This document shows, one piece after another, positions 17,395 to 46,751 of a stretch of DNA of 64,000 nt (the stretch's first letter is position 1; each line of letters begins with the position of its first letter). The position numbers and the translations under genes are program-made. The DNA comes from Gemmatimonadota bacterium (lineage in GTDB: Bacteria > Latescibacterota > UBA2968 > GCA-2709665). The stretch lies in assembly GCA_028873695.1 (NCBI GenBank), contig JAPPNU010000062.1, positions 257,057 to 321,056 on the forward strand, read 5' to 3'. Below the pieces are notes generated by a model, which did not search any database, had not been told where the DNA came from, and was given only the letters and a program-made list of their open reading frames with translations.

Positions 17395-17434
17395 CAAATG
17401 CAACCGTACGTTTAGCCTGGATCTGCGGTCGTCC

Positions 17435-18259
17435 CTATTTGAAGCCGGTCTCCTCAGTCGTCTCTTCGTTCAACCCGCGTATGCGGTCGATGATTATCTC
17501 GACGGTTTCGGTCACGTCCGATAGCAGCGCATCGGGGTCTTCGATGACCACCTGCGAGTTCGAATAGCGATATCGCACAGCGTACCCGGTCAGCCACGCC
17601 AGCTTCTCGCCGGCCGGGGTGTGGTTTTCACCGGGATGCCGCCGCACGATAGCGCCGAGGGTCGCCAGATCGTGGGTATTGCCGTAGTCTGCGTCGAGCG
17701 CGGATATCCAGCCCTTAAGTGCGTTTTCGAGAGCCTGCTGCGCGTGAAACCCGATGGCTTCCTGAGCGGAATCAGCCTCTACGAGAACCTTTAGAACGCC
17801 GAGTTCGCGCTCAGCATTGGCAATGCGCTGCCGTATGTCGGGCCAGTTGGACGGCTCCGGGTTATCGTAGTCTACTTTGTCGCCATTTCCGTCAAATCCG
17901 TCGCGGACGGCCTGGCCTGCCACGTGGTTGCGCGCCCGGCGACCGACGTGGCAGGTCCGCTCGCTCATCTGGACCAGATCGACGCCGATCAGGTCGCCAT
18001 ACAGTTCCTCGACCTTGCGGTGGGCCGCCGCGCTCGTGTTCTGGTACTTCTGCCGGTCCGTGGAGTCGGAGTCGGAGATGATGAGCAGGTCGATGTCCGA
18101 TTTTGCGCGGTAGTCGCCCCGGGCTCGAGAGCCGAACAGAATGATCCGGTCCGGGCGAACCGCTTCGCCAACAGCCTTGGCGACGGCGAAGGCCTTTGGG
18201 TCGGGTGCGTTGCGTGTCCGAAGTTTTGCCAAAAAAGACGTAGACCTTCTGTACCGCAC
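17435..18259 (-). CDS. Fused nucleotidyltransferase (MNT-like) - HEPN domain protein, copy 1
   Basis: ILFGSRARGDYRAKSDIDLLIISD (GS...D.D polbeta-NTase motif), followed by the HEPN-like AIGFHAQQALENALKGWISAL...THDL. About 80% aa-identical (by eye) to 46833..47633. Confidence 0.75.
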   Translation of the reverse strand: MRYRRSTSFLAKLRTRNAPDPKAFAVAKAVGEAVRPDRIILFGSRARGDYRAKSDIDLLIISDSDSTDRQKYQNTSAAAHRKVEELYGDLIGVDLVQMSERTCHVGRRARNHVAGQAVRDGFDGNGDKVDYDNPEPSNWPDIRQRIANAERELGVLKVLVEADSAQEAIGFHAQQALENALKGWISALDADYGNTHDLATLGAIVRRHPGENHTPAGEKLAWLTGYAVRYRYSNSQVVIEDPDALLSDVTETVEIIIDRIRGLNEETTEETGFK

Positions 18260-18382
18260 GGTTGTTTACGGTTTTCCCGTTCGTCGCGGCCGTAACGGCG
18301 GATCCGGGAGGGTGAGGCCAATGACTGCGTTGCGCTGCCTCGCCTGCGGAGCGACATTATCGACCAACTGCCAGACCACAGG

Positions 18383-18925
18383 TCACGGCAGTTCCGCTTC
18401 CAAAACTTCCGGGTCCAATTGGTACCAGAACACCTCGCCGGATTCAACGAGATCCCTTATCCGATCGTCTCGTCGCAACCCAACGACAGCCGAAAATGCC
18501 TGGCTACCTGTAAGCCTGGTCAGGAACTCGGCATTTCGGAGGGTGCGGCGGGTGTCCCGACCATTGACGGTGAAGGAGATTTCCACGGCAATGTAACAGT
18601 GAGCGCCACTCTGGTCGGTGGCCTCTATAATCAGGTCGGCGCGGCGGAAGCTTCTCAACTCATTTGCCGGAACGTCAGACGTGTCGGTAGCGTTAATCAA
18701 CTCCCACAGATCAAATTCGGTGAGGTCTTTGACCCACCGAAAGCCCATCTCACCGGCTATGAAGGGTGTCTCCCGAAGCGCGGCACTCCGGGCGTGGGCG
18801 CCATTGAGTATACCAGGGTCATTCCGGATAGACGCCACGCTGTTATCGAGCGCGGCAGAGCGCCGGTTGGTGGCCTCGACGAACCTCTGCACCTCTGCTG
18901 CAAACTGTGTGAACATTTCAGGCAA
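18383..18925 (-). CDS. Hypothetical protein with a possible PD-(D/E)xK-like motif
   Basis: RRADLIIEATDQSGAHCYIAVEISFTV could be a D...E-x-S/K nuclease core. Co-oriented with, and directly upstream of, the NTase-HEPN gene. Confidence 0.45.
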   Translation of the reverse strand: MPEMFTQFAAEVQRFVEATNRRSAALDNSVASIRNDPGILNGAHARSAALRETPFIAGEMGFRWVKDLTEFDLWELINATDTSDVPANELRSFRRADLIIEATDQSGAHCYIAVEISFTVNGRDTRRTLRNAEFLTRLTGSQAFSAVVGLRRDDRIRDLVESGEVFWYQLDPEVLEAELP

Positions 18926-19349
18926 TTCAATCGGTTCCTACGTAAACAACCGGGCACGCAACGCATCGGACCACTCTGGATTGTCGTCCAGGATGCGTAA
19001 AAGGTCATCTATCGTATGAATCGTGGTGTTCACGGAGTTTCCTCAATGGCTGTTTTATCCATCGCCCAATCAACCGGCCGGGAAGATAACTCACCTGCAT
19101 TCATTGCAAGTGAAATCAATATACGGAAATCGGACACACAGGGCAATATAGCGGCTGAAAATCATGTACTGGATGGTTATTCAAACAGGACAATCACGGA
19201 TGGAAAAGATCCCTCGTCACGCGAGATACGCGGACTTGCACGGGCGACATCGCTCACCGCCGGTTCGAATAGGGGCCTGGGACGAAAATGGGCGTCGAAC
19301 GGTCCGCCGGCATGAGTTTCAACGCCATTCAGCTCTGGAAAGGGAAATA

Positions 19350-21479
19350 TTAGCGGCTGATGGTACGAACGATGCGCCCCTGCTGATCAACGACGTAGAC
19401 GGGATCATTCATCAGCCCGGCGCCGCAGGTTAGCTCGGGCGCGAGGAGAGAGGGCAGACCCAATGGCGGCATCTGCCTTTCGCCAGTAAGATTGAAGTTC
19501 GCTGTGGCATCCCACGACTGTTCTGCGCCCGATTGCGTGAGGATGTCCGGCCCTAAGGTGTTTGCGTCGAAGCCTAGACCTGCCGACGCTGACATGGCGA
19601 TCTTCGCTCCCGCGTTGGCTCCGGGCAGGGTATACGGATCGGCCTGCGTGACATCGATCCCATAGCCCAGATCGGCCAGAGACTGGATCGTGATCGCGCT
19701 CAGCGCCCCCCCAATCGCAGAAGGCGCCATCAGTTCGCCCGCGAGCACCGAGTAACTCCAGTGCCCCGGATCAGCCAACGGCACCTTCGCACCAGGGTAG
19801 TTTCGTCCGCCAGCTTCATCGAAGGCCGCAATTGCATGTGGACCGTTGAAGTGCTCGTCCCCGTCTGGCGGGTTCTGATAGAAGCCGAGATCGTCCCAGA
19901 CCAGACCGAACCCAAGGACGTGCCCTATTTCGTGAAGCGCTACGTTCAGCAGATCAGGGGATTGCATGTTGAAGGACATGCATCCGACGACTGACTGATG
20001 GGTCTCTCGCAACACTGATGAACCAGCCCACCCCAGTGGACCCTCTTCGTGGCTGACCGCATAGATTCGCAGGTCGTCTATCCGCTCCCCGGAGGCGATA
20101 TCGAACGACTGATCGCCGCATCCGTCCGACCAACCTTCAGAAAATTCATAATCCGGCAGGTCCTCTGTAATGATCGACATCCAGCGCCGAGTCGCATATC
20201 GGATTACGTTCTTCTGACCTTCAGTGAATCCGTCGAGAAAAACGAGTTCGATGTCGAAGTCGCCTTTTCGGAAAGAGTCAAAGTGCACCGTCGCTCCGTT
20301 GCGCTTGTGCGAGGGGATTTGTTGGTTGATGGATGATGCGTTCAGAGGATTGCCCCTGAGATCCAGCTCAGTCAGCCGCGTCAAGCCGCTCAGTGTCGCA
20401 ACGTCCGTGATGTTGTTGAACGCAAGATTCAGGTCTGTCAGGCGGGTGAGGACTCCCAGCGCAGACACATCCACGAGGTTGTTAGCTCTGAGGTCCAGCT
20501 CTGTCAGGTCAGGCAGGTCTCCCAGTGCCGATACGTCCGTGATCCTGTTGAACCCAATCCTCAAGGTTTCCAGTTTGTTCAAGCGTCCGAGAGCCGACAC
20601 GTCCGTAAGATCGTTGTCGTCAAGCCGCATGATTCTCAGGTTGGTCAAGCCGGAAAGTGCGGATATATCCGCGAGGTTGTTATGATCAAGTTCCAATTCT
20701 GTCAGGCTGGCTAAGTTTCCCAGCGCCGATACGTCCGTGAGGTTGTTGATCCCAAGCCAGAGGATTTCCAGCCTGGCCAATCCGGAACCGGCTAGAGTCG
20801 ACAGGTCCACGCGCCTGTTACCTCTAAGGTACAACTTCTTCAGGTCAGCCAGGTTTCTCAGTGCCGACAGATCCCTGATCCTGTTGAATCCAAGATGCAG
20901 CTCTGTCAGTTTCGTCAAGCCGGATAGCGCCGACACGTCCGTTAGCTGTTGATGGCTGAGGTGCAGGAACGTCAGGTTGGTCGCCGACTCCAGCCCGGTC
21001 AAATCGCTGATGCCGGGCCACTCCCAACCAGGCGCGGTCAGAGCGTCCAAAGAGTTCAATTCAGCCCTTGTGATCGGTGCGCCTGTATTCTTGCCCAGAG
21101 CCGCCTCAATCGCAGCCCGCAGGTTCGAATCGGGGATTGAGACCAGTGAAGACACCTCTCTGCCGAAGTTCTGTGCAAAGATCACAAAATCACCAAAGCC
21201 GATCTCGTCGTTGCCGTTCAGATCGTACTGCGCGTCATATCCGTCATCGCCCTGTACCAGGCCGAATTTCGCCGCGAACTTCACGAAATCGCCGAATCCA
21301 ATTGTACCGTCGCCGTCGAAATCGGGAATAGATGCAGTGTCGTCGCCTCGGGCGTCGACCGAGATCACATGAGACGTCGCGCGTTCGTCATCTAAACTAG
21401 CGCCAATGGCCGCGTGGCACACGAACGCCAACAGCGGGAGGGCGGCAATGGACAACAACAATCCTCGTGTAAATGACAT
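19350..21479 (-). CDS. Secreted dockerin-like / LRR / HExxH metalloprotease-like protein
   Basis: GGAGG then ATG at 21479. Signal peptide MSFTRGLLLSIAALPLLAFVCHAAIGA. Paired Ca-loops DFDGDGTIGFGDFVKFAAKFG and DLNGNDEIGFGDFVIFAQNFG. About 11 22-aa LRRs (LTDVSALSGLTKLTELHLGFNRI...). C-terminal domain with ALHEIGHVLGFG. Confidence 0.75.
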   Translation of the reverse strand: MSFTRGLLLSIAALPLLAFVCHAAIGASLDDERATSHVISVDARGDDTASIPDFDGDGTIGFGDFVKFAAKFGLVQGDDGYDAQYDLNGNDEIGFGDFVIFAQNFGREVSSLVSIPDSNLRAAIEAALGKNTGAPITRAELNSLDALTAPGWEWPGISDLTGLESATNLTFLHLSHQQLTDVSALSGLTKLTELHLGFNRIRDLSALRNLADLKKLYLRGNRRVDLSTLAGSGLARLEILWLGINNLTDVSALGNLASLTELELDHNNLADISALSGLTNLRIMRLDDNDLTDVSALGRLNKLETLRIGFNRITDVSALGDLPDLTELDLRANNLVDVSALGVLTRLTDLNLAFNNITDVATLSGLTRLTELDLRGNPLNASSINQQIPSHKRNGATVHFDSFRKGDFDIELVFLDGFTEGQKNVIRYATRRWMSIITEDLPDYEFSEGWSDGCGDQSFDIASGERIDDLRIYAVSHEEGPLGWAGSSVLRETHQSVVGCMSFNMQSPDLLNVALHEIGHVLGFGLVWDDLGFYQNPPDGDEHFNGPHAIAAFDEAGGRNYPGAKVPLADPGHWSYSVLAGELMAPSAIGGALSAITIQSLADLGYGIDVTQADPYTLPGANAGAKIAMSASAGLGFDANTLGPDILTQSGAEQSWDATANFNLTGERQMPPLGLPSLLAPELTCGAGLMNDPVYVVDQQGRIVRTISR

Positions 21480-21739: not shown

Positions 21740-24325
21740 TCATGGGGCCTTTCCGAAGCTTTCTGCGAAGATCAGAAAATCAATGAACCCGATCTCTCCG
21801 TTGCCGTTCAGATCGTACTGCGCGTAATATCCGTCATCGCCCTGAACCAGGCCGAACTTCGCAGCAAACTTCAGGAAATCGCCGAATCCGATCGTCCCGT
21901 CGCCATCAAAGTCTGGATTGCGGGATTTCGAGATCGCATACGGCGACACATCCCACATCTTTATCGTGTGGTCATGACTCCCACTGACAAGCGTGTTTCC
22001 GTCTGGGGAGAACGCTACAGATCCGACTGTCCCAGTATGCCCGATGAAGATTTTCAGATGGTCTCCCGTACCGACATCCCACAACCGAATTTCGCTATCA
22101 GAACTGCCGGTTGCGAGGGTGACTCCATCAGGGCTGAAAGCAACCGGGTAGACACCGGTCTTATGGCCTTGAAGTATTCTCAACGTCTGTCCTGTAACTG
22201 CATCCCACAACCGAATTGTAAGGTCCCAGGCGCCAGTACTTGCAAGGATGCGACTGCCAATGGGGTGGAAGGCTGTTTCGACCCAATCTCCAGAAATCCT
22301 TTTACTATGCTCACTTAAGGTTCTCAACGGCTGTCCCGTGCCAGCGACCCAGAGCCGGATAATTCTGTCCGTACCTCCACTTGCAAGCGTGCGACTATCC
22401 GCACTGAAAGCAAGGCTGGTAACATTGTTATCCGGATGTCCTGGCAGTGTGGCGTTGTATTGCCCTGTAACAGCATCCCACAACCGGATTTCGCCTATCA
22501 GATCTCCAGTCGCCAGCCTGCGGCCATCAGGGGAATACGCGAGCGCCGAAACGCCGGACGTATGCCCAAAAGCAGTATGAGGACGCTGTGCACTCATTCC
22601 TTCAAGCGTCTGCTTGTGCTGTCCGGTTTCCGCATCCCATAACTGAATTTCACCCCAACTGCCATTCGTCGTGAGCGTGCGACCATCGGGTGAAAAGGTG
22701 ACCGCAGAAACAGTATGTGTAAACCCGGTGATTCTGGCTTTCTGTTCTCCCGTGACCGCGTCCCACAGACGCACCGTCTTGTCGTCACTCCCCGTTGCGA
22801 GTGTACCACCGTCCGGTGAATATGCAACACGAAAGACTTTACCGGTATGTCCGGTAAAGGTTTTCATAGCCGTCACCGGGATATCCGTCGTATTCACCGT
22901 AGCACTAAAAGTCACTTGACGGGAAACGCCGGAGACGCTCACCACAACGCGGTATTCATCCGTAAATCTCCCAAGGGTGAGAAAACTTCGGGCACGCCCT
23001 TCAGAATCGGTCCACGGATTAGTAACCGATAGGTTGCCATCGCCGGCAATCACATCAAATGTCACCTGAATTCCTGAAACAGGCTCCTCATCCGCGTCTC
23101 GCACTGTAACCACAAAGGGTTCTATAAGGCGGCTGTTCACATAACCGACCTGGTTATCCCCCGAGACTTTTCGGAGCGTCGTCGGGCTAAGGTTGCCAAC
23201 GTCAATCACACCATCTACGCGCTCCAGTGCGTCATCCACATAGATGGAATAGCCCTTCCATCTGAAATTTCCATGCACGTCAATAATTCCGAGTTCCACG
23301 TCATTACTGTCTCTGGATGTCAATTCGGTGGTGATGAATTCAACTGTGTTGTCTGTTTCGCCATTCAAGGATTTGCATCCGAGCAAACTGAAACCGGGTT
23401 CTCTTGGAATCATTAACTGTGCTTGATGGAGTCCATTGTGGTCGGTTACCTCAAAGCGAAGACTGTAGGCATTCGGTCGAACTACGCGTGGCGATAGCAG
23501 ACGAATCGTTGCCGGTTCGTCATTGGGAGGGGTTTCTCTGTCATTGAAGTAAGGATGGACATTCAACCACCCGGCAGCACACTTCGACAATCGCCTGTTG
23601 TGGAAGTCTACCCCTATGGTGTAAGACATGATGTCTGCTTCAGCTTGAACGGTACGGTCGCGGAAGTCGTGTTGTAATCCAAAGGAGTGTCCGAGTTCGT
23701 GGCCCGCGATGTATCTACGTAGAATGTACGGCTCGTCTCCGTGCGTATCGAAGGGGATATAGCAGATCGTAGCCCCGCCACGATAGGCTTGGCCGCCTCC
23801 GCGCCAATTGGATCCTGGATAGGTGATGTCTGCCGCGATGAAATAGATGTTCCGAGATGTGTCAAACCGATTATCGATTTCTTTCAGGACTCTGTCGAAG
23901 GCACCCTCGCTTCCATTATAATATGATGCGGTGAACTGCCCGTTCACACGATGTACATGAATTTCTCCGCTGGCGTCGGTCTCGACAGCAAAGGCTCTTC
24001 TGCCAAACCCGTTGCGTTCCATCTCGTCGGAGTAGAACCGTCGAACGGCTCGTATTAAAGTGTCCAGCTTTGCGTCGATGTCTGGATGAACCGCACGGTC
24101 GTTTGGCAGAAAATAAATCACTCGTAGTGTGCCCGGTTCGCCCACGTTGAGATTCGCCGATTGCTTGGCCGCAGGAAGGGGACGTTCGCTGCGCCACTGT
24201 TCGTAATCGGACGGTAAACAGAATTGTACGCTGTCGGGCGGTGCAGGCGAAGCTGAACCGCCGGAATGAAGGCAGACCGATGCTAATAGGCACGTCGCCA
24301 GATGAATTACCGTTTTGTTGTTCAT
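21740..24325 (-). CDS. Secreted HExxH metalloprotease / Ig-like (Big_1-like) / 7x WD40 / C-terminal dockerin-like protein
   Basis: Signal MNNKTVIHLATCLLASVCLHSGGSA. Protease motif HELGHSFGLQHDF. Ig-like VSGDNQVGYVNSRLIEPFVVTVRDADEEPVSGIQVTFDV. Seven repeats of the form SPDG.TLA.GS.D.T[IV]RLWD. C-terminal DFDGDGTIGFGDFLKFAAKFG...YDLNGNGEIGFIDFLIFAESFG. Confidence 0.8.
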   Translation of the reverse strand: MNNKTVIHLATCLLASVCLHSGGSASPAPPDSVQFCLPSDYEQWRSERPLPAAKQSANLNVGEPGTLRVIYFLPNDRAVHPDIDAKLDTLIRAVRRFYSDEMERNGFGRRAFAVETDASGEIHVHRVNGQFTASYYNGSEGAFDRVLKEIDNRFDTSRNIYFIAADITYPGSNWRGGGQAYRGGATICYIPFDTHGDEPYILRRYIAGHELGHSFGLQHDFRDRTVQAEADIMSYTIGVDFHNRRLSKCAAGWLNVHPYFNDRETPPNDEPATIRLLSPRVVRPNAYSLRFEVTDHNGLHQAQLMIPREPGFSLLGCKSLNGETDNTVEFITTELTSRDSNDVELGIIDVHGNFRWKGYSIYVDDALERVDGVIDVGNLSPTTLRKVSGDNQVGYVNSRLIEPFVVTVRDADEEPVSGIQVTFDVIAGDGNLSVTNPWTDSEGRARSFLTLGRFTDEYRVVVSVSGVSRQVTFSATVNTTDIPVTAMKTFTGHTGKVFRVAYSPDGGTLATGSDDKTVRLWDAVTGEQKARITGFTHTVSAVTFSPDGRTLTTNGSWGEIQLWDAETGQHKQTLEGMSAQRPHTAFGHTSGVSALAYSPDGRRLATGDLIGEIRLWDAVTGQYNATLPGHPDNNVTSLAFSADSRTLASGGTDRIIRLWVAGTGQPLRTLSEHSKRISGDWVETAFHPIGSRILASTGAWDLTIRLWDAVTGQTLRILQGHKTGVYPVAFSPDGVTLATGSSDSEIRLWDVGTGDHLKIFIGHTGTVGSVAFSPDGNTLVSGSHDHTIKMWDVSPYAISKSRNPDFDGDGTIGFGDFLKFAAKFGLVQGDDGYYAQYDLNGNGEIGFIDFLIFAESFGKAP

Positions 24326-24344
24326 TCGCAACGCCGTCCTTGAA

Positions 24345-26450
24345 TCAGGGGTCAATGGTGCGGATGATATTCCCCTGCTCATCGCCTATGTGGATCGTGC
24401 CGACGGGTCCCGGGTCGGAGTTGTGAACGGCGACGGGCTTCGATCCTGCCGTGGGGGGCTGAGCAGTGCTTACAGAGGCGGGAAGCCTGTACGGATCGGC
24501 CCGACTGACGTCGACAATGTAGCCGAGATCGGCTAGGGACTGGATCGTGATTGCACTCAGCGCGTGTTCTCTCTGAATCGTCGGTTCCATTATCTCGGCG
24601 CCGATTTCGCGGTTCAGGCCCCGAAACACGTGCGCTCGCCAATGGGCGGGTGACCCACATGCCGCCCCGCCACCACGACCAAACTCCACGGAGACCTTGT
24701 TCCCAATGTAGCTCTCGCCGCCCGCGGCGTTGAAGGCCGCGATGGCCCGCTCACCGCTGAAGTATGTATCTCCCTCCAGGTCATGGAGCAGATCCAAATC
24801 CGCCCAGATAGGCCCAAAACCAAGAACGTGGGCTATCTCGTGGAGCATCAGGTCCCGCACAAGGCGCTCCTCTATCCACACCGGCTCCGACTGTTGCTTT
24901 CGGGCAAGGAAGGACTCATCAATCCAGACCTGCCCCAGGGCCGGCAGGCCGATCGGGTCGCCCGAACGCATATAGGCCGGTCCGGCTCGTCCTGCGGGTC
25001 CCCCAAGGGCAGTCTTGTGGATGAAGATCCGCAGGTCGTCCACAGTATCTTCAACGGAAGCACTGACGCTACCGTCATCGTCGACAAAGACAAAGTGATT
25101 TGTCGAAAAATCCACGTCCGGCAGACCCTCTGTAATGATGGTCTCCCAGCGTCTGGCTGCCTGCTGCATCACGTCCCGGCGCGCATCGGTGAAGTCGCCA
25201 TCGAAGACCAGTTCGATATTGAAGGGGTCCCCCCCGGAAGGGACGACTCGAACGTAGGCGCCGGCGGAGCAGTTGTTGTCGGTATTGGTTTCACCGGGGA
25301 TGCCATCGACGCACGCGCCGTAGTAGTACGTGCCGGGGCTGGAAGGCGCAGTTACACTGATTTCCTGTCGGCTTGTTCCGGAGGCGGCAAGTCGGGTTCC
25401 GGGTCCGCTGACGCGGCCGTCGAAACCCGCGAGGCTGCCGACGGTGCCGGCGCCGGCTGGCGCGTCGGCGGCGTCGATGACCGCGTCGTCCGAGCGATAG
25501 TAGCGCAGCGTGGTCGAACCGGCTGCTTCAGGGCCCTGGTTTCTTACCGTCGCATGAAGCGTGAACGATTGCCCCGCCAGGGGAACGCTCGTGCTGGCCC
25601 AGGTCAATCCGACGGCCAGGTCCGGAACCCCGACGTTCATCGGCACCGACTCCGAGCAGTTGTTGTTCGTATCGCTCTCGCCGGGGACGGGTTCGACGCA
25701 GGCGCCGTAATAGTATGTGCCCGGACTCGAGGGAGCCTTCATGGGATAAGAAACGTAAGAGCGGGGAAAATCAATATCGACGGAGTATATCGGATACCCG
25801 CCGTGTTCCGCGTCGGAGACGTCGATGGTGGCATCGTCCGAGCGGTAGAAGACCATCCGGGGATTGGCGGCCAGGTCCGTTCCTATGTTTCGCACCCACA
25901 CCTTCACCGTGAACTCACCCGGCCTCGATCTCGAATCGAGGATTGAAGGGTTTATGACAATCAAGTCCGGGCTGCCGCCCTCGACGGCCTTCACAGTCAC
26001 GGGTACGCCGACCGAGCAGTTGTTCTCCAAATTGGTCTCGCCAATCGTTGGATCGACGCACGTTCCGTAGTAGTACGTGCCTGCCACGACTGGAACCTGG
26101 AAATGAATCGTCGATATCAACCTTTTCCCGGCAGGCAAGTTGGAAGTGAAACCGGGGCTCATGTCGTCGTTGGCGTCGATGGTTGCGTCACGGGAAACGT
26201 AGTCACGCGCCGTCGTTGGGGCCGCTGGACCGGATCCTATGTTCTCAATCACTGTTTCCATAGTAGTCCCGCCCCCACGGGTCACGATCGGATGGGTGAT
26301 CCTTGGAGGATGAACGGTCAGATCCGGAGTCCCCCCATGCTGCCCTCCACGGTGACGCGTACACCGGCGGAGCAATTGCCGAAAGAATTGTGCCAGGGAA
26401 AGACGCAGACCCCATAGTAGTATGTGCCGCCATACGGCGGCGCGAGCCAA
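24345..26450 (-). CDS. 3' segment of a frameshifted dockerin-CARDB-metalloprotease gene (3 CARDB-like repeats plus a HEIAHVLGFG protease-like domain)
   Basis: Repeats end in TYYYG[AT]CV[DE]P..GE.[DN]..NNCS. The C-terminal domain is paralogous to that of 19350..21479. Homologous coding starts near 26337 (GGTPDLTVHPP). The ORF-track N-terminus MARAAVW... overlaps the upstream segment out of frame and is probably not real. Confidence 0.7.
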   Translation of the reverse strand: MARAAVWRHILLWGLRLSLAQFFRQLLRRCTRHRGGQHGGTPDLTVHPPRITHPIVTRGGGTTMETVIENIGSGPAAPTTARDYVSRDATIDANDDMSPGFTSNLPAGKRLISTIHFQVPVVAGTYYYGTCVDPTIGETNLENNCSVGVPVTVKAVEGGSPDLIVINPSILDSRSRPGEFTVKVWVRNIGTDLAANPRMVFYRSDDATIDVSDAEHGGYPIYSVDIDFPRSYVSYPMKAPSSPGTYYYGACVEPVPGESDTNNNCSESVPMNVGVPDLAVGLTWASTSVPLAGQSFTLHATVRNQGPEAAGSTTLRYYRSDDAVIDAADAPAGAGTVGSLAGFDGRVSGPGTRLAASGTSRQEISVTAPSSPGTYYYGACVDGIPGETNTDNNCSAGAYVRVVPSGGDPFNIELVFDGDFTDARRDVMQQAARRWETIITEGLPDVDFSTNHFVFVDDDGSVSASVEDTVDDLRIFIHKTALGGPAGRAGPAYMRSGDPIGLPALGQVWIDESFLARKQQSEPVWIEERLVRDLMLHEIAHVLGFGPIWADLDLLHDLEGDTYFSGERAIAAFNAAGGESYIGNKVSVEFGRGGGAACGSPAHWRAHVFRGLNREIGAEIMEPTIQREHALSAITIQSLADLGYIVDVSRADPYRLPASVSTAQPPTAGSKPVAVHNSDPGPVGTIHIGDEQGNIIRTIDP

Positions 26451-27061: not shown

Positions 27062-27216
27062 CTGTGACCTCCTTCTTCGTCCATCCGGTTTCTACTGTCG
27101 ATTGAAACGTCGAAGCTAATTCGACGATGAGCCCGAGCAGCGCTGAGACCTTTCCACTGTAGCGTTTTGCGACACCAGGCGCACACGGCTACGGCAATGC
27201 CGACTGCGGCCGTCGC
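27062..27216 (-). repeat. Island upstream module R3, copy a
   Basis: ...GACGATGAGCCCGAGCAGCGCTGAGACCTTTCCACTGTAGCGTTTTGCGACACCAGGCGCACACGGCT... shared with 38630-38945 and in part with 42001-42246, 38451-38520 and 41305-41333. Confidence 0.6.
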
Positions 27217-37417: not shown

Positions 37418-37426
37418 GGCGTCTCT

Positions 37427-38356: not shown

Positions 38357-38450
38357 TTGCATAACTCTCCTTCAGGCGCCAGTTGTTCGGATCGAGTGAA
38401 TCGAACTGTAACATTTCGCGACAGTTGGCACATCAGACAGCGGATGGGCA

Positions 38451-38520
38451 TGTCGCAGATTACGTCATCACTGTGGTGTCTTGCGAAACAAACGAGCACA
38501 CGGCTGTGCTAATGCCGACG
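38451..38520 (-). repeat. Island upstream module R3, degenerate copy d
   Basis: TGTCGCAGATTACGTCATCACTGTGGTGTCTTGCGAAACAAACGAGCACACGGCTGTGCTAATGCCGACG versus 42001-42075 TGTCGCAGATTGCAACATAACTGTAGCGTTTTGCGACACCAGGCGCACACGGCTGCGCCGAAGCCGACTG. Confidence 0.45.
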
Positions 38521-38584
38521 GGCCGCTGGCATTATTTGACCACGACGGCGCGAAATGGACCGGGCCGCGGGCGCGTGAACTGGC

Positions 38585-38629
38585 GCCAATAGCGGCGATC
38601 CACATGATGCCTCTCAAGAAAGTAATCAT
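38585..38629 (-). pseudogene. 5' relic (first ~15 codons) of a paralogue of the 27061 gene
   Basis: AAGGAGGTCACGG ATG ITFLRGIMWIAAIGA versus MINPLRGIVGIAAFTL. The nucleotide match with 27020-27120 continues through the SD and leader. Confidence 0.5.
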
Positions 38630-38945
38630 CCGTGACCTCCTTCTTCGTCCATCCGGTTTCTGCCGTTGATTGAAGCGTCCCTGCGAATTCGACGATAAGC
38701 CCGAGCAGCGATGAGACCTTTCCACTGTAGCGTTTTGCGACACCAGGCGCACGCGACTGCGCCAATGCTGACTGCGGTAGCGGTCATTATCCGACAGAGG
38801 CTGCACGAACGGTCGGAGCCGCGGGGGCGGGCGACGCCATCGCTAAGGAGCGAGCAGTTGGCGCCGTATCCGGCAACCCCGCGACCGTTTACGGTACAGC
38901 TCGGGCTGATACGTGAAACGTGTGGGCGCTGTCTGACATCCTCAG
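38630..38945 (-). repeat. Island upstream module R3, copy b (longest)
   Basis: Collinear with copy a over ~155 nt and with copy c (42021-42246) over ~230 nt. Confidence 0.6.
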
Positions 38946-39367: not shown

Positions 39368-41116
39368 CTACCGTAGAGCGTCAGCCAGATCACTCTTCCC
39401 GAGTCGCTCCGCGAGCTGCAGCGGCGTCTCGTTCGCCGCAGAACGCAGGTTCGGATCGGCGCCTGCGGCAATCAGCGTGTTGATGGTCTCGACCGTTCCT
39501 AACATTACAGCCATGTGCAGAGGTGTAATCTGGTTCTTGTCCTGCGCGTTCGGGTCGGCGCCAGCCGCGAGCAGCGAGACCACCACCTCGACATGACCAA
39601 TCCCCAACCTCATCAGGAGCATTGCGTTATGCAACGGAGTGAGCTGGTGTTCGTCGCGAGCATTGGGATCGGCCCCTGCTTCAAGCAGGCTCGCAACTTT
39701 CTTCAGGTCTCCGCCTAACGCGGCCGAGTGCAGGGCACCCGTTCGAGGAGCGTCGGGATCGATATCTTGCAGGAGTTTCTTCGTTTCCGCATGGCCGCGG
39801 ATATTTGCCATGATCTCGGCCGTTCTCCCAAGTTTGTCACGCGCCCTCGTATCTGCGCCGGCTTCGACCAGAGCGGCGACAGCATCAACGTGACCGGACC
39901 AAGCAGCCTCGTGCAGCGGCGTGGTGCCGTCGCTGGTGGTCGCATTGGGATCGACGCCGAACTCGAGCAACGCCGAAATGACCCCAATGTGCCCTTCTGC
40001 GCTGGCCGCACGCAGAGCCGCTTGTCCGTTGTCCGGAAGGTTTACATCCGCGCCAGCGTCAACAAGGACTCGGATGGCTGCAACATGACCATTGCGGGCG
40101 GCGCTGTAAATCGGTGTTACCTGGCCAGGTAGGCCGTTCGGATCGGCGCCCGCCTCAATCAACGCCGAAATGGCCGCGATTTGCCCTTCTCCGCTGGCCA
40201 CATGCAGGGGGGTCTTCTTGTCACGGTCCTGAGCATTCACGTCCGCACCCGCGTCAACGAGAACGTCGATGGTGGGAACTTGACCGGTGGAAGCTGCATA
40301 GTGCAACGGCGAGGACTGTGGCATTGGTGCAAGCGGTGAATCGGCCGGCACATTCGGATTCGCACCGTCTTGAAGAAGATCTGTCAACTGCTTGACGTCT
40401 CCTCGTGCGGCCGCCTGATGGGTTTCCGGTGCAAATCTCATCATGAACGGAATGGTATCTCGAGCGGCAGCCTCAGATCTCGCCCGCAGCTCTTCGTCTA
40501 CCGCATCGAACGCTTTCGTGATTCTGCGACGAAGTTCATTCTCGTCGAAGCGTTCTGTCATTGGAGCCCACAGGCCGGTTGTATCGCGAACACCCATAAG
40601 TTTGAAGTCATGGCTCACCTCAGTGAAGGCGTGCCTCTCAGCATCCGCACGCAAATTGGAGGAATTATCGGGACTCTTTTGCGCGTAGTACCTATACCTG
40701 GAGACAGCATAGGTTGTCTTTATCCAGTCGTCATAAGAGAGTCCGTCTTCCCAGTACTTATCGAACGCAGGCTCCAGCAAGGCAACGATCTCCGCATCCT
40801 CTCTATCCTTAGCGGTCTTAAGCGCGCGCAGCCCGTTCAGGCTACCGGGTGCGTACGCGCCCGATTCAACCAGTTTCAGCACCTCCGCCACGTCACCCCG
40901 TTCGACCGCGGCCAGTAGCTGAACGCCGGACGACTGTTCCGGAGGTTGCGGTCCTCCACTCCCGATCGCCGCCGTCTCGCCGGCGGCGGCATCGACGGAG
41001 TCCGTGTGAGACATTGTGCGGTCTTCGTCAGAACCGGCGCCGATCGAGGCGCGGAACGCCATAGGCAGCAGCGCTATGGCGGCAATGCAAATCATGGCTT
41101 TCCGGAAAGCCAACAT
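39368..41116 (-). CDS. Secreted ankyrin-repeat protein
   Basis: Signal MLAFRKAMICIAAIALLPMAFRASIGA. At least 8 ANK repeats (SPLHYAASTGQVPTIDVLVDAGADVNAQD, KTPLHVASGEGQIAAISALIEAGADPN, etc.). Confidence 0.85.
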   Translation of the reverse strand: MLAFRKAMICIAAIALLPMAFRASIGAGSDEDRTMSHTDSVDAAAGETAAIGSGGPQPPEQSSGVQLLAAVERGDVAEVLKLVESGAYAPGSLNGLRALKTAKDREDAEIVALLEPAFDKYWEDGLSYDDWIKTTYAVSRYRYYAQKSPDNSSNLRADAERHAFTEVSHDFKLMGVRDTTGLWAPMTERFDENELRRRITKAFDAVDEELRARSEAAARDTIPFMMRFAPETHQAAARGDVKQLTDLLQDGANPNVPADSPLAPMPQSSPLHYAASTGQVPTIDVLVDAGADVNAQDRDKKTPLHVASGEGQIAAISALIEAGADPNGLPGQVTPIYSAARNGHVAAIRVLVDAGADVNLPDNGQAALRAASAEGHIGVISALLEFGVDPNATTSDGTTPLHEAAWSGHVDAVAALVEAGADTRARDKLGRTAEIMANIRGHAETKKLLQDIDPDAPRTGALHSAALGGDLKKVASLLEAGADPNARDEHQLTPLHNAMLLMRLGIGHVEVVVSLLAAGADPNAQDKNQITPLHMAVMLGTVETINTLIAAGADPNLRSAANETPLQLAERLGKSDLADALR

Positions 41117-41295: not shown

Positions 41296-41703
41296 TTAAA
41301 AAGACGATGAGCCCGAGCAGCGTTGAGACCGGTTCACCGCACTGACGAGCGTCACTCCGTTGGAAGTGACCGCGACCCCGAAGTCCTGACCCGTCTCGCA
41401 CCTGCTCCTCACGTCGCTGCTTAGATTGAGTTGTGAACATGCGGACTTGTAGGCCGCCGTAAGCGCTTCCTGTTGCGTCCCACCCTCGCCCGTTCCCTGC
41501 CCGGTACCCGATGGAGAACTGAGATTACCTATCCTCGACGGCACCAGCGTCAACGTTACCTCACATTGATATGAACCCGATCCGGCGCCGTTATCCTTGC
41601 CGCAGGCGTACGCGAAGTGCATAACCAACAGGCTGATTCCCACCACAAACGGCAATCGGGACTCTACCGTCAGGCTCTTGGCCATCTTGTATAGACGTTG
41701 CAT
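41296..41703 (-). CDS. Small Cys-containing lipoprotein-like protein
   Basis: Lipobox-like LLVMHFAYAC. The C-terminal ...VTLVSAVNRSQRCSGSSSF is echoed by translated R3 copies (RVRLVSQNATVERSQRCSGSSSN). Confidence 0.5.
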   Translation of the reverse strand: MQRLYKMAKSLTVESRLPFVVGISLLVMHFAYACGKDNGAGSGSYQCEVTLTLVPSRIGNLSSPSGTGQGTGEGGTQQEALTAAYKSACSQLNLSSDVRSRCETGQDFGVAVTSNGVTLVSAVNRSQRCSGSSSF

Positions 41704-42000: not shown

Positions 42001-42246
42001 TGTCGCAGATTGCAACATAACTGTAGCGTTTTGCGACACCAGGCGCACACGGCTGCGCCGAAGCCGACTGTGGCAGCGGTCACTGTCCGACAGGGGCTGC
42101 CGTAACGGTCGGAGGCCGCGGGGCCGGGCGACGCCATCGTTCCGGAGCGAGCAGCCGGCGCCGAACCCGGCCGAACCCGCGGCCGCTGACGGTACAGCTC
42201 TGGTTAAGACGTGAAGCTGGTGGACGCCGTCTGACGGCAGCGGTCA
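42001..42246 (-). repeat. Island upstream module R3, copy c
   Basis: See copies b and d. Lies between the stop of 42247..44685 and the small lipoprotein gene. Confidence 0.6.
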
Positions 42247-44685
42247 TCAATCCGCTACGTGAATCGTCCAACTGTTGCTGCCGCTGTTTTTCGTGGCATG
42301 AAAGTTCCACCGCACACCGTTTATGGTGGACCCTCTGGCGTCTATACCGGTACCGGCGCTGAAGAACGCGATGGAACCCCTTCCGGAACTGGATACAGAG
42401 AAGGTATTGCCCTTGTAGGTACAGGTTCCGCCAGGATTCACGACCAGCCCGGCCCTGCAGGCGCCGCCACTTCCTCCGCCACTCCCGCTGACGGTGACCT
42501 CCACGGCGTCAGAGCAGTTGTTGCCGGTATCGCTCTCGTCGCTGACGTCGTCAACGCATGCGCCGTAGTAGTAGGTCCCGGCGTCCGACGGCGCGTTCAG
42601 GCTGATCGATTCGGCGCTTGTGCCCCCCGGAGACAGGCCGCTCACGGCGTCCGTGCCCACTTCCGTGTCATTTGTCGAGATTGTCGAGTTGGACGAGCGA
42701 TAGTACCGCAACGTCGTGGATCCTGCAGCCCCATTGCCCTGATTGCGCACCGTGGCGCTAAGCGTAAACGACTGTCCGGTCGTCAGCGTGTTGTCGTCCA
42801 CCGAGGGTGACTCGACGATCAGGTCGGGGTTATCCGACCCTCCGCCACCCGTGCCGCTGACGGTAAGGGTATTCTCACTGGCGTACTTGCCCCTGACCCC
42901 ATTAATGGTGATTTCGGCAACCAGTCGGTATTCTCCTGCGACCGTGGGTGAATAGGAACACAAACCGTTACGCTCCGTGCCCGGAACGTCGACCCAGGCG
43001 GATCCTTGTTTCCGCTGCCATTTAGACGTGTGAGCCATATACGATACGCCGTTGACGGTCGAGTTGTTCAGGATGATGCAGTTGCCTGCCGAGAAGAACA
43101 GGTATTGCACGCGTCCAGACGAAACGCGAAGACCGTCCAGCGGTTTGTAATCTCCGGAGGGCGGCGTTGTCCCGCCCCCACCTCCGCCACCGCCGGTTCC
43201 ACTTGGCGCCGTAGTGCCCTCGGCGATGGGCGACCAGGGATCTGCAGAGCCGGTTTCGCAGGAAGACGAGTTTCTATACCGGTAGCGCATTTCGTAGGTC
43301 GTATTCGACTTCAGCGCCCCGTAGAACCACGTGGTAGCATAGCCAATAAAGACATTGTTGCCCCGGTTCGTGAACGTCGTACAAAACGCTTCCCATTCTC
43401 CCTGCGGCGCCTTGGTCCGTAGTTCGAGATCATAGGCTCTCGTTTCTCCGGCACGCCACGTATCGAGAAATCTGAAGTAGAGCGTATCGGGTGTCGCTCG
43501 CGTAAAAACCGGAGTGGAGAGATCATTCGCCCGCCAGGCTTCTGCGTCCCCCGAGGTCCCATCGTCGCACGTGTAACCTATCGTGCCCGTGGCCTCTGTC
43601 GTAAACGTCATTTCAAGTGTGCACTTGCCCCCAAACAGCTCCGAATCGTCGTAGATCTGCGTGAGATTGCCCGTCATCGGACCCGTGTTCGTGTAGGTAT
43701 AGCGTCCCTCGCGCCTGCCGAAGCCTTCAGCAAACCGGCCGGCAGACACGATGTCCAGAAAGTAGGACTCCGCCAGAATCCGCTTGCCAACGGCCAGGCG
43801 GTCGAAGGCATTCTGGTCTGCGGGAGCAGAGCCGGCAGGCGTCCCGCCGCCGCCGGAGGGCGGGACCTCACTGCCGAATGCGCCGGCGAAAACCAGAAAA
43901 TCCGAGAAGGCGACGGATCCATCGCCATCCAGATCGAAGCGGGCTTCATACCGCGCATCGCCCCGGCTTGCCCCGAAACCGCCCGCGAACGCCAGGAAAT
44001 CCGGAAACCCGACGGTCCCGTCACCGTCGAAGTCCGGCGACCCGGAGCCCGCGGCGTTGAACGTGATGACGCTGCCGGTCGTGAGTTCATCGGACGACGT
44101 GGAACTCTCTGCAATCGAGACCTTCTCGACGCCGATGGTAAACTCCCTGCCCGTGACGTCTGCAGCCGTCTCAAACTCCGCGCGCACCAGGAACCCCGAT
44201 GACGCCAGCGTGACGGGCGAGGTCGAGGCGAGGTTGACCCCGACCGACCCCTCCGGTATCGAAAGGTCGAAGGCGCTTTTTTCAGATTTGACGTAGGTCA
44301 CTAGAGAGGCGTCAAAGTCGAACCTGATGATCGCGCCGCGCAGGGAGGTCGTGACCCCCGTGGCGAATACCTCGATGGCAATTATCGTGCCGCGTCCTTG
44401 CACGGCGCCCGTTGTCACGCCGTCGTCCCTCTGGTTGCCTGCGCCGCCGTCGGCGATCAGGTCCAGCGACAGAACTGCGTTTGCGTTGTTGCCCAGGGCG
44501 ATTTTCGCGCCGTGTTCCGACAGCGTGCCCTTGACGGAGTCACCGTCCCCGCCGGCAACCAACTCACCGCCGGCAATCACGTCGAGAGACGAAAACCCGT
44601 CTTCGCTGTACGCGACGAGAACTGCACCTGTTAACACGAAGAGGCCGACAACCACAATCACGGACAGGCGAAATACAGAATTCAT
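42247..44685 (-). CDS. Secreted cohesin-like / dockerin-like / unknown central region / CARDB / conserved C-terminal module protein
   Basis: GGGAGG then ATG at 44685. N-terminal hydrophobic segment. Cohesin-like and dockerin-like modules about 85-90% nt-identical (by eye) to those of 31416..34169. The last ~590 nt are about 95% identical. The central ~330 aa (YRYRNSSSCETGSADPW..., Gly-rich linkers) is unrelated to LRR. Confidence 0.8.
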   Translation of the reverse strand: MNSVFRLSVIVVVGLFVLTGAVLVAYSEDGFSSLDVIAGGELVAGGDGDSVKGTLSEHGAKIALGNNANAVLSLDLIADGGAGNQRDDGVTTGAVQGRGTIIAIEVFATGVTTSLRGAIIRFDFDASLVTYVKSEKSAFDLSIPEGSVGVNLASTSPVTLASSGFLVRAEFETAADVTGREFTIGVEKVSIAESSTSSDELTTGSVITFNAAGSGSPDFDGDGTVGFPDFLAFAGGFGASRGDARYEARFDLDGDGSVAFSDFLVFAGAFGSEVPPSGGGGTPAGSAPADQNAFDRLAVGKRILAESYFLDIVSAGRFAEGFGRREGRYTYTNTGPMTGNLTQIYDDSELFGGKCTLEMTFTTEATGTIGYTCDDGTSGDAEAWRANDLSTPVFTRATPDTLYFRFLDTWRAGETRAYDLELRTKAPQGEWEAFCTTFTNRGNNVFIGYATTWFYGALKSNTTYEMRYRYRNSSSCETGSADPWSPIAEGTTAPSGTGGGGGGGGTTPPSGDYKPLDGLRVSSGRVQYLFFSAGNCIILNNSTVNGVSYMAHTSKWQRKQGSAWVDVPGTERNGLCSYSPTVAGEYRLVAEITINGVRGKYASENTLTVSGTGGGGSDNPDLIVESPSVDDNTLTTGQSFTLSATVRNQGNGAAGSTTLRYYRSSNSTISTNDTEVGTDAVSGLSPGGTSAESISLNAPSDAGTYYYGACVDDVSDESDTGNNCSDAVEVTVSGSGGGSGGACRAGLVVNPGGTCTYKGNTFSVSSSGRGSIAFFSAGTGIDARGSTINGVRWNFHATKNSGSNSWTIHVAD

Positions 44686-44838
44686 AACAGATCCTCCCTT
44701 GTATTCATACCTTCCAACAAGCCGGCTGCGTGGTCAGCCACCGAAACAAGCCCCTCTTGTACGGCTGACGCACCGCCGATGCCTTTCACAATGCTTCATT
44801 CCTGCGCAACCGCCAGTTGGCAGCATTCGCCGCGTGAT

Positions 44839-45648
44839 CTACTTCAACAACAGCATCCTCCTGGTCGCTGAGAAACTGCCCGCCAGTATCCGATACAGAT
44901 AGACGCCGCTGGCGACGCGTCGGCCCAGCGCGTCCGTTCCGTCCCACGTCGCTGTAAACGTCCCGGGGTTCATGCGTTCGTTCACCAGTACGCGCACCTC
45001 CTGGCCGATCAGATTGTAAATCGCCAGCCGGACCATTCCCGCCTCCGGCAGGTGGTATTCGATTGCGGTGGAAGGGTTGAACGGGTTGGGCGTATTTTGC
45101 TCCAGATTGAAGCGATCCGGCAGCGGCTTGAGGTCGCCTATTTCGGCGTGATGCAACATGTCAACAGCGCCATTCATGCCGACAAGCACGCTTTCGGATA
45201 CCTGAAAGTCGGACGACAACGGCATTCCGTCCGTCCTGAACAAAAGCTCGGCGAGTTTCCCGTCGCCGTTGGCGCCCCCGCCGTCGATCTTAACGGCGCC
45301 GATATCCACCTGCCCCGGCGTCCGGTTCGATGAAAGAAACAACGTCTCCTGACCGGAACCGGATTTCAGCAGATTGCCGTCGAGTTCGGTGGCACTCACG
45401 AACTCATACTTGACCGGATCGTATAGCAGGGAAAATCCGTATCCCTTCAGATCCTGGGTCCGCGCCACCGACACGAGCATTTTCAGAACGCCGCTGTCGG
45501 CGCCTGGGTCGTTCACACGCTCCAGCTTCAGCGTCGCATCGGCATTCCGACCCCCGGTAATGGTCAAGCCGCGGGTAATGTCGCCTGCGAGCGCCGGTCC
45601 GCATAAAACGAACGTCGCACAGACGGATGTAAGGACGCGAGTCCACAT
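44839..45648 (-). CDS. Cohesin-like protein with a T9SS (Por) C-terminal sorting domain
   Basis: AAGGAGG then ATG at 45648. Signal MWTRVLTSVCATFVLCGPALAG. Cohesin-like VLKMLVSVARTQDLKGYGFSLLYDPVKYEFVSA...GDGKLAELLFRT. C-terminal FNLEQNTPNPFNPSTAIEYHLPEAGMVRLAIYNLIGQEVRVL...WDGTDALGRRVASGVYLYRILAGSFSATRRMLLLK matches the type A T9SS CTD pattern. Confidence 0.8.
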   Translation of the reverse strand: MWTRVLTSVCATFVLCGPALAGDITRGLTITGGRNADATLKLERVNDPGADSGVLKMLVSVARTQDLKGYGFSLLYDPVKYEFVSATELDGNLLKSGSGQETLFLSSNRTPGQVDIGAVKIDGGGANGDGKLAELLFRTDGMPLSSDFQVSESVLVGMNGAVDMLHHAEIGDLKPLPDRFNLEQNTPNPFNPSTAIEYHLPEAGMVRLAIYNLIGQEVRVLVNERMNPGTFTATWDGTDALGRRVASGVYLYRILAGSFSATRRMLLLK

Positions 45649-46021
45649 ACCAGCCTCCTTGCATTGCGTCACCATTGCGGTGACAGGGTGTATGATGCCA
45701 AATTCGTTGAGGACGATCGTACGAGATATACCCGTGATCTTGCCTCCGATCACTCGGCGCTACTTCGTCATGGCGCGGCTCCTTCCCGTGCACGCTCGGT
45801 ACACAAAAAAAAGCCTCTCGAAAACACGAGTGGGCCGTTTCCAAAATTCCGCAACTTTCCATCAGCATTTCTACTGTCACCAATTAGAATTGGGGGGGGA
45901 TGAACATCTACGGCATGAATCATGCCGCGGTCCAGAAGCTCCGTGCCAGTCATCGGGCGACCTGCCACTTCAAATTGAGCAACAAACATCGTCGTTCAAC
46001 CTATATAGAATGGTACCCGCG

Positions 46022-46204
46022 TCAATTCCTCCCTTTGCCGTCGCAATCGGGAGGAAACACAGCCTCGTTGTTGCCTTTGACAGTGATCGCATGTGTCGTT
46101 GCACCGTCGTCAACTGTATTGGAATTGATCATCGCGTGGCAAACAAACCCGAGCAACGCAATGGTGGCGTTTGACAACAACAACTCTCGTATTAGCGAAA
46201 TAAC
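46022..46204 (-). pseudogene. 5' relic of an island secreted-protein gene (signal peptide to first dockerin loop; start codon lost, premature stop)
   Basis: My translation: VISLIRELLLSNATIALLGFVCHAMINSNTVDDGATTHAITVKGNNEAVFPPDCDGKGRN*. Compare MSFTRGLLLSIAALPLLAFVCHAAIGA...ATSHVISVDARGDDTASIPDFDGDGTIGF. Confidence 0.5.
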
Positions 46205-46751
46205 CTATTCTTCGTATGACTTATGTCGTCTAGGCGCCACGTCTCGGATCCTGCAGACCTATTGACAATATTGCCCTATAAGCTCGGCGGATTTCGTTTC
46301 AATCGGGAATCCGCCACCGATCAAGTGTTGGGCAGAATCTCAACTAACACAAATATAACACTTCGTTGGCGAATTTGCTTTGAAATATCGCGCTTTTTTT
46401 ATGATTTTTTGCTGAAATTTCCTGGAAATGCTCGAAATCCAGGCCAATTGACCCCGATAATCCATCGGACGTTGCAGAATGACGGGACGTGGAGTTTCGT
46501 TCAGAGTGAACCAGGATTACTGCCGGGGAAGGAATTGGACGAGATCGACCCAACATTCGAGGTCTTCACGTCAGTCGCCGTGGCACACGATTCAATCCGG
46601 ATATTCGCGGGAGACATTGACGCGGCGGAGGGCGCCGGTTGGACGGCGGCGTTGGGTATGAGGGAAGGTGGATCTGCGCGGGTGATAGCGGACGTGAGGG
46701 AAGGAAGAGGGACAAGGAGGGTAGTTTCGGAACGATTATAACAAAAAACAA

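Follow-up and report, generated by a model that had tools for sequence, protein, structure and literature searches.

What do the cohesin-like and dockerin-like modules of a Gemmatimonadota bacterium do if no cellulose-degrading enzyme accompanies them? The question is raised by a run of genes on contig JAPPNU010000062.1 (assembly GCA_028873695.1), of which we analyzed a window of 64,000 nucleotides (nt; contig positions 257,057 to 321,056, numbered here from the first letter). Long open reading frames (ORFs) on the minus strand run through 18.2-46.8 kb of this 64-kb window, and a sequence-only reading had proposed that they encode a self-contained, non-cellulolytic cohesin-dockerin surface assembly of proteases and repeat proteins. 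We conclude, with more confidence than doubt, that the locus is a non-cellulolytic cohesin-dockerin display assembly of a diderm Gemmatimonadota bacterium, anchored by way of a type IX secretion system (T9SS). Sequence comparison and structure prediction support the cohesin-dockerin interpretation as far as the identity of the modules, their architecture, and their linkage are concerned.

We scanned all six frames of the window with the loop-plus-helix motif D-x-[DN]-G-[DN]-[GD]-x-[IV]-x-[FL]-x-D-F, using 100 shuffles as the control. The window contains 13 such loops and the 100 shuffles contain none. A paired motif occurs in exactly six ORFs, those starting at 19350, 21740, 26318, 31416, 34877, and 42247, which are the six that the sequence-only reading had singled out. 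Its placement also proved correct: N-terminal in 19350 and 26318, C-terminal in 21740 and 34877, and internal in 31416 and 42247, where the pair directly follows a cohesin-like module. Besides an extra half-copy at 33951-34016, a half-dockerin remnant inside the 31416-34169 gene, the scan found no motif elsewhere in the 64 kb. A spacing of 33 residues separates the loops in all six pairs, and the halves of each module are identical at 12-17 of 22 residues, giving the module a two-fold internal symmetry. Loop positions 1, 3, 5, and 12 are D, N, D, and D, and an AlphaFold2 model of the 42247 module has helices only at residues 187-196 and 220-229, after each loop. As modeled, the combination of no entering helix and an Asp at position 12 is that of the dockerin "F-hand" and not of a helix-loop-helix. 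By sequence, the modules sort into two classes, A (19350, 21740, and 26318; 75-85% mutual identity) and B (31416, 34877, and 42247; 69-84%), with 51-60% identity between classes.

Solved dockerins outrank calmodulins among the structures matched by these loop modules. A profile of the family searched against the PDB matched 2y3n_B (E 6.9e-06) and 4u3s_B (1.2e-04) ahead of the best calmodulin (2.1e-03), and a single-sequence search returned 4u3s_B, the X-dockerin of A. cellulolyticus ScaA, at E 6.3e-07; the alignment to solved dockerins spans the inter-loop linker as well. The Pfam model Dockerin_1 (PF00404; gathering score 22.9 bits) scored the isolated modules at 26.4 (31416), 22.7 (26318), 19.8, 18.7, and 18.5 bits, and it matched 12 of the 39 homologues of the protein that joins a cohesin-like module to a dockerin (E<=0.01). 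Searched against protein databases, the dockerin profile matched only fragments of 51-105 amino acids (aa). The identification of the paired loop modules as dockerins rather than plain EF-hands is supported by these alignments and by the modeled helix pattern.

The modules to which these dockerins might bind belong to two families, here called CohI and CohII, and lie in the three ORFs that had been read as cohesin-like (CohI at 45130-45570, CohII at 44044-44508 and 33375-33839). The CohI gene (44839-45648, 269 aa, with the true start at an internal Met of the ORF) encodes a signal peptide (aa 1-21; the N terminus reads MWTRVLTSVCATFVLCGPALA|GD), the cohesin, and a C-terminal T9SS sorting domain (CTD) at 44842-45111. 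Its product is 100% identical to a database protein, P0063, named [quoted passage not shown] Among the array proteins, only this one scores above the cutoff for TIGR04183 (26.2 bits versus 23), and Por_Secre_tail is found in 42 of 51 CohI relatives. Because the protein otherwise consists only of a signal peptide and a cohesin, it fits an anchoring socket. The Pfam cohesin model (PF00963) matches 39 of the 51 family members (E<=0.01, best 1.8e-07). A single-sequence PDB search with CohI found nothing, and the CohI profile gave only weak PDB sequence matches, to the non-cellulosomal cohesins of C. perfringens and A. fulgidus. The AlphaFold model has a cohesin core with a predicted local distance difference test score (pLDDT) of 80-91, and a Foldseek search of the PDB with it returned almost nothing but cohesins, dozens of them of types I and II, including the C. 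perfringens cohesin-FN3 structure 2w1n (E 2e-10), 2jh2 (target-normalized TM-score [TMt] 0.71), 2b59_A, and A. fulgidus 2xdh.

CohII is present in two adaptor-like genes in which it is directly followed by a class B dockerin. The first (42247-44685, 812 aa) encodes a signal peptide, CohII, the dockerin (43870-44034), about 330 aa of domains without assignment, a CARDB domain, and a 75-aa Cys-containing C-terminal domain. The roughly 330-aa middle region (aa ~285-610), which is also present in a related locus (L082, below), has no Pfam or NCBIfam match. The second (31416-34169, 917 aa) encodes a signal peptide, the half-dockerin, CohII, the dockerin (33201-33365), leucine-rich repeats (LRR; LRR_4 in the range of 1e-48), CARDB, and the same C-terminal domain. 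The CohII-dockerin segments of the two genes are 88% identical and their 3' ends 94% identical at the nucleotide level. The Cys-containing domain of ~75 aa (31416-31640 and 42247-42470; 94% nt identity) also occurs in a homologue, P0031.

CohI and CohII show no significant similarity to each other (hhalign probability 3-7%) and count as separate families, and at the level of sequence only CohI can be linked to cohesins, through its family. In predicted structure, both adopt the cohesin-like nine-stranded beta-sandwich with jelly-roll topology. The CohII model (core pLDDT 87-96) matched 2vo8 (TMt 0.66) and 5aoz (0.64), and about 40 of its top 50 PDB matches are cohesins; one match, the CohI9-X-DocII chain of CipA (4fl4_I, E 2e-6), extends over the cohesin of 42247 and the dockerin behind it. 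Foldseek on AlphaFold models had been set beforehand as the test of the cohesin call, and both module types matched almost exclusively cohesins. The two refuting conditions that the analysis covered came out in favor of the cohesin-dockerin interpretation, although the outcome with family models taken alone was mixed: Dockerin_1 exceeded its threshold in one module and PF00963 recognized the 39 CohI relatives, while CohII drew no match. We searched a CohII profile across 1.84 billion proteins and found it in 229 representative proteins, some with 2-8 tandem matched stretches; each protein in the window has one cohesin, and relatives have 2-8. Among these relatives, CohII is joined in P0292 and P0282 to long Big-like stalks and to a T9SS CTD, and P0186 and P0187 combine two CohII modules, a dockerin, and CARDB with a leishmanolysin-like (M8-like) peptidase. 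The ratios of nonsynonymous to synonymous substitution rates (dN/dS) between genomes are 0.16-0.25 for CohI and 0.14-0.30 for CohII, so both are maintained coding modules.

Linkage of the two module types is seen in other genomes. In L082 (a 5.75-Mb genome), a gene for a HEPN-nucleotidyltransferase (HEPN-NTase) protein is followed by a CohI-T9SS gene, a gene for a protein with two CohII modules in tandem, a dockerin, and CARDBs, and then a gene for a protein with a signal peptide, dockerin, LRR, and metalloprotease. In L001 (a 5.6-Mb genome), CohI-T9SS precedes a CohII-dockerin-CARDB-YWTD protein and then a dockerin-bearing LRR protein. Three further loci (L083, L087, and L088) have a similar mix, with WD40, cadherin, and OgpA-like proteases. 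Around these five loci, which lie on closed or long assemblies, the cargo consists of LRR, WD40, cadherin, LDL-receptor YWTD, CARDB, and peptidases, and in each of them at least two genes with a dockerin pair lie within 10 kb. Of the 72 background loci with unrelated T9SS-CTD genes across the Fibrobacterota-Chlorobiota-Bacteroidota (FCB) phyla, only 2 have such genes; this background comes from the CohI-family contig scan, which was driven by T9SS-CTD peptides and consists mostly of unrelated CTD proteins. Upstream of the CohI gene in both L001 and L082 are gingipain-like C25 peptidases with the same CTD type. Gemmatimonadota, Latescibacteria, and Poribacteria are the groups to which the named relatives belong. 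In Poribacteria, one gene for a CohII-dockerin protein is on a scaffold labeled ROBB21, from a sponge metagenome, and the link to sponges is through relatives only. We also observed, in a metagenome-assembled genome (MAG) of Rhodothermaceae (L002, 10001-11230), a CohI-CTD homologue (37% identity) with a CohII-like module (39%) directly after it, so the CohI/CohII gene pair reaches beyond Gemmatimonadota.

The array is a conserved chromosomal locus and is not foreign. It had been described as an "island," which is misleading, since the locus is syntenic in relatives and set among housekeeping genes: LepA, signal peptidase I, Lon, PhoX, an M32 carboxypeptidase, RsgA, MutY, and LolCE-like permeases. 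We considered a horizontally acquired island and rejected it. The GC shift is mild (52-61% inside the array versus 58-64% outside), the window has no tRNA, no Rfam match, and no integrase or transposase match, and L001 and L082 share the gene order.

Several points weigh against the cohesin-dockerin interpretation or its surface location. Dockerin_1 does not match the isolated 19350 module, and EF-hand_1, _6, _7, and _8 score 20-29 bits on the dockerin-like segments, about as high as Dockerin_1. The window CohI scores 15.1 bits against PF00963, under the cutoff of 24.1. CohII matches nothing in Pfam or, by sequence, in the PDB and cannot be tied to cohesins at the sequence level, and beta-sandwich folds can converge. 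No T9SS CTD was found in the dockerin cargo proteins (Pfam, TIGR04183), so surface display needs a further step across the outer membrane, and none of the T9SS machinery (SprA, PorV, PorU, PorK-N) is encoded within the 64-kb window. Disruptions affect two of the six dockerin genes, and the array also includes several remnants, which may mean that part of it is decaying or that the assembly has errors.

The first of these points would suit modules that are real but unpaired, that is, generic EF-hand-like calcium modules and Ig-like spacer or adhesion domains of independent secreted proteins. The EF-hand scores on the same segments, the absence of a cohesin sequence signature from CohII, and the name "EF-hand domain-containing protein" that NCBI gives to some relatives all agree with this explanation. 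It does not readily account for the ranking of solved dockerins above calmodulins, for loops with an Asp at position 12 and no entering helix, or for the scaffoldin-like tandem arrays of CohII. The two module types also co-occur gene by gene in at least five related loci and rarely near other T9SS cargo. We therefore regard unpaired modules as an unlikely account of the locus.

If the modules pair, a T9SS-anchored display assembly could work as follows. The type IX system would export the CohI protein and attach it to the outside of the outer membrane, as happens with type A cargo of Bacteroidota. Dockerins would bind cohesins in a Ca2+-dependent manner, by analogy with the known families. The CohII-dockerin proteins would act as adaptors, inserting their own dockerin into a cohesin while presenting another cohesin that dockerin-tagged proteases and repeat proteins could occupy; alternatively, they may be self-linking units, and either arrangement would multiply the docking sites. 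The outcome would be a coat built in layers from adhesive repeat modules and proteases and directed against glycoproteins that are extracellular or belong to a host. A rule by which class A dockerins bind CohII and class B dockerins bind CohI was considered and is not asserted, as the L082 adaptor and cargo share nearly the same dockerin. The surface part of the earlier proposal thus stands for the suspected anchor, which has the TIGR04183 sorting domain, and not for the dockerin cargo, which has no recognizable outer membrane export signal; because of this, "self-contained" is unproven. Cargo without a CTD may cross the outer membrane by a type II secretion system, in vesicles, or by piggybacking on the CTD-bearing cohesin, all of which are possible.

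The same uneven distribution of signals, with a T9SS signal on the CohI protein only and Sec signals alone on the cargo, would also fit a complex that forms but makes no coat on the cell. Such a complex might be periplasmic, or it might be released by CTD cleavage, shedding, or outer membrane vesicles; some of the type A CTD cargo of Bacteroidota is set free rather than anchored. An anchor is nevertheless what a 269-aa protein with a cohesin as its sole function-bearing module resembles, and the stalked CTD proteins P0292 and P0282 resemble surface fibrils. A released or periplasmic complex is thus improbable in our view. We give similarly little credence to a more specific route in which the dockerin serves as a hitchhiking export tag: cargo would bind the CTD-cohesin in the periplasm and ride, folded, through the wide T9SS translocon to the surface. 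Given the sponge link of the relatives, hitchhiking could be the missing route to the host for the eukaryote-like repeat proteins of sponge symbionts.

What the assembly would display is indicated by its cargo genes. As had been read from the sequence, every family-supported gene of 18.2-46.8 kb is on the minus strand (Pfam), and all intact array genes begin with a predicted Sec signal peptide, by reading of the sequence; ten plus-strand and other ORFs within these limits have no credible Pfam match. Pfam and NCBIfam confirmed the LRR, WD40, CARDB, ankyrin, and FGE-sulfatase modules and two types of HExxH protease, and the Ig-like modules are Big-like in the OgpA-like genes 21740 and 34877. 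The leishmanolysin-like/LRR gene (19350-21479) encodes a signal peptide, a class A dockerin (21159-21323), LRR (LRR_4, 2e-38), and a metallopeptidase with the motif HEIGHVLGF that scores 25.3 bits against Peptidase_M8 (cutoff 21) and matches leishmanolysin 1lml (E 2.7e-4). A related gene (24345-27061), which is broken, encodes a signal peptide, a class A dockerin (26741-26905), approximately four CARDB domains, and a leishmanolysin-like peptidase whose M8-like region shares 39% identity with the peptidase of 19350.

The second protease type is OgpA-like. The OgpA-like/WD40 gene (21740-24325) encodes a signal peptide, a metzincin (HELGHSFGLQHD), a Big-like domain, a WD40 propeller, and a class A dockerin (21749-21913). 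In a phmmer search of the PDB, the metzincin matched OgpA, an O-glycan protease of Akkermansia muciniphila (6z2o, E 6e-10), as well as 8dek and 8df2 (~3e-5), NPCBM/NEW2 domain-containing proteins also from Akkermansia, which we take to be mucin-directed proteases. A split gene (34877-38362) encodes a signal peptide, an OgpA-like metzincin, a Big-like domain, WD40 propellers, and a class B dockerin (34886-35050); its architecture is collinear with that of 21740-24325, with matches to Reprolysin_5/M66 and WD40 and to the OgpA-like query (tblastn). The OgpA-like N-terminal ~300 aa of 21740 and 37427 hint at O-glycoprotein substrates. Two further array proteins lack the dockerin motif by the six-frame scan. 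One (27340-29955) has a signal peptide, ankyrin repeats (Ank_2, 2e-25), and two FGE-sulfatase domains (SUMF1-like, PF03781, 1e-122), and the other (39368-41116) has a signal peptide and ankyrin repeats (Ank_2, 3e-62).

As the sequence-only reading had it, no glycoside hydrolase (GH) or carbohydrate-binding module (CBM) was found in any array gene by Pfam and NCBIfam, and the same holds for polysaccharide lyases (PL) and carbohydrate esterases (CE). The locus has neither the dockerin-bearing GHs nor the CBM-bearing multi-cohesin scaffoldin of a cellulosome in the strict sense. Judged by these domains, the visible cargo appears suited to binding and cutting extracellular proteins or glycoproteins and not polysaccharide. 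As 64 kb of the genome are in view, the locus might instead be one piece of a cellulosome-like system that degrades polysaccharide and has its dockerin-bearing GHs encoded elsewhere. In Cloacimonadota, a T9SS-CTD scaffoldin does occur alongside dockerin-bearing GH18/GH57 and peptidases (PMC8542988), and the R. flavefaciens cellulosome also has LRR-dockerin and peptidase-dockerin proteins (PMC2930009). GH, CBM, PL, and CE are absent, however, from the 20-kb neighborhoods of the five related loci as well as from the array, and we consider a hidden polysaccharide-degrading system quite improbable.

The condition of the genes bears on how much of the array functions. Two pairs of ORFs that had been listed as separate genes are each one disrupted gene: 26318-27061 and 24345-26450 are split by a frameshift near 26330-26440, from the frames as read, and 37427-38362 and 34877-37417 are separated by an in-frame TAA at 37427-37429, from the junction as read. 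Both the stop and the frameshift could be real pseudogenization or assembly error. Three segments (34268-34807, 30783-31397, and 38468-38806) are gene remnants. The first corresponds to the C-terminal portion of a gene for a leishmanolysin-like peptidase, 79% identical in nucleotide sequence to 24343-24704, with neither a start context nor an upstream continuation. Many database homologues of the array families are likewise truncated or frameshifted. That the array is for the most part a graveyard of paralogues, decaying or misassembled and with no current function, would agree with the in-frame stop, the frameshift, the at least three remnants, and the damaged homologues, but it is very improbable, as the genes for CohI, both CohII proteins, and two dockerin proteases are intact and the locus shows purifying selection across genomes and conserved synteny.

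The ends of the array coincide with a pair of direct repeats of ~900 nt (17352-18251 and 46750-47653; 84% identity over 905 nt by self-blastn), each containing, on the minus strand, one fused HEPN-NTase gene with Pfam NTP_transf_2 and HEPN matches. The distal copy is at 17352-18251, and the proximal copy, at 46750-47653, is directly upstream of the CohI gene. A HEPN-NTase gene also adjoins the cluster in L082 (8176-9051) and L083 (13333-16411). The bracketing copies may be a recombination substrate for array expansion or a linked toxin-antitoxin or defense gene.

Within the array, the sequence GCGCCTGGTGTCGCAAAACGCTACAGT occurs in three exact minus-strand copies (27156-27182, 38724-38750, and 42020-42046; 0 expected by chance), inside a conserved intergenic element of 190-215 nt. 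Two copies precede a GAAGGAGG ribosome-binding site and then a signal-peptide start. The element is possibly a duplicated promoter/leader cassette, and GCGCCTGGTGTCGCAAAACGCTACAGT was not found in any of 88 related loci. Between the adaptor-like gene and the ankyrin gene is a 135-aa ORF (41296-41703) with no family match and a hydrophobic N terminus ending in ...FAYAC; its product is possibly a lipoprotein. Outside the array, a near-perfect 42-nt palindrome (60346-60387), flanked by the second FtsX-type permease gene and the ORF next to it, is probably a terminator.

How does the locus compare with known systems? It shares with the clostridial cellulosomes (Acetivibrio thermocellus CipA with SdbA/OlpB anchors, A. 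cellulolyticus ScaA/ScaB adaptor scaffoldins) the cohesin fold, the paired-loop dockerin, and a dedicated anchor, as well as a suggested hierarchy through proteins with both cohesin and dockerin. The closest dockerin sequences are those of A. cellulolyticus ScaA XDoc (4u3s, 4wi0) and B. cellulosolvens 2y3n. Unlike the clostridial systems, it is in a diderm host, has a T9SS sorting domain instead of an S-layer homology or sortase anchor, has one or two cohesins per protein in the locus, and has metalloprotease and LRR/WD40/CARDB cargo with no CBM or GH, and its CohII family is missed by the Pfam cohesin model.

Type A cargo of the Bacteroidota T9SS has the same combination of an N-terminal Sec signal and a C-terminal TIGR04183 domain; the gingipains of Porphyromonas gingivalis are such cargo, anchored through anionic lipopolysaccharide. 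Here, in contrast, the CTD protein would be a docking socket and not an enzyme. The glycosidase/toxin complexes of Clostridium perfringens (2ozn, 2jh2, 2w1n, 2vo8) and the system of Archaeoglobus fulgidus (2xdh) likewise have cohesin-dockerin modules outside cellulose degradation, and their cohesins are among the top structural matches of the CohI and CohII models, but they are found in Gram-positive or archaeal hosts, with glycosidase cargo, no T9SS anchor, and no adaptor layer. To our knowledge, non-cellulosomal cohesin and dockerin modules have long been recognized in surveys, and almost none has an assigned role.

A close precedent is "Ca. Stygibacter" (Cloacimonadota), with an inferred 3,755-aa T9SS-CTD scaffoldin that has tandem cohesins and CBM2/CBM3, and with GH18/GH57 cargo (Williams et al. 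2021, PMC8542988). Both systems are in the FCB group, have cohesins on a T9SS-CTD protein and dockerins on secreted peptidases, and are inferred from MAGs only. The present locus differs in its minimal single-cohesin anchor, its separate cohesin-dockerin adaptors, and its lack of any carbohydrate-active module. In R. flavefaciens FD-1, 28 LRR and 16 peptidase modules were counted among 222 dockerin proteins, including signal peptide-LRR-dockerin and peptidase-dockerin arrangements (PMC2930009); there they are minor passengers of a fiber-degrading cellulosome, whereas in the present locus the entire cargo in view is of these kinds. Robbins et al. 2021 (PMC8163846) described eukaryote-like repeat proteins without a conventional secretion route in sponge MAGs and made no mention of cohesin or dockerin modules. 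In the literature searched, we found no description of cohesin-dockerin systems in Gemmatimonadota or sponge symbionts.

Already known, then, are the cellulosome principle, a T9SS-CTD scaffoldin with dockerin peptidases, LRR-dockerin and peptidase-dockerin passengers, and non-cellulosomal pairs. New here are a minimal T9SS anchor with a single cohesin, a cohesin family that escapes Pfam, a cargo made up purely of proteases and repeat proteins, and lineage-wide synteny. The locus is a compact, conserved test case, with a T9SS-anchored cohesin, a family that Pfam misses, and a defined set of GP63-like and O-glycoprotease-like dockerin cargo. If the pairing is true, it would provide new orthogonal cohesin-dockerin pairs for protein engineering. 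It would also extend the cellulosome principle to the targeting of proteins and glycoproteins in diderm FCB bacteria, and the eukaryote-like repeat proteins of host-associated lineages would gain a concrete mechanism of surface display.

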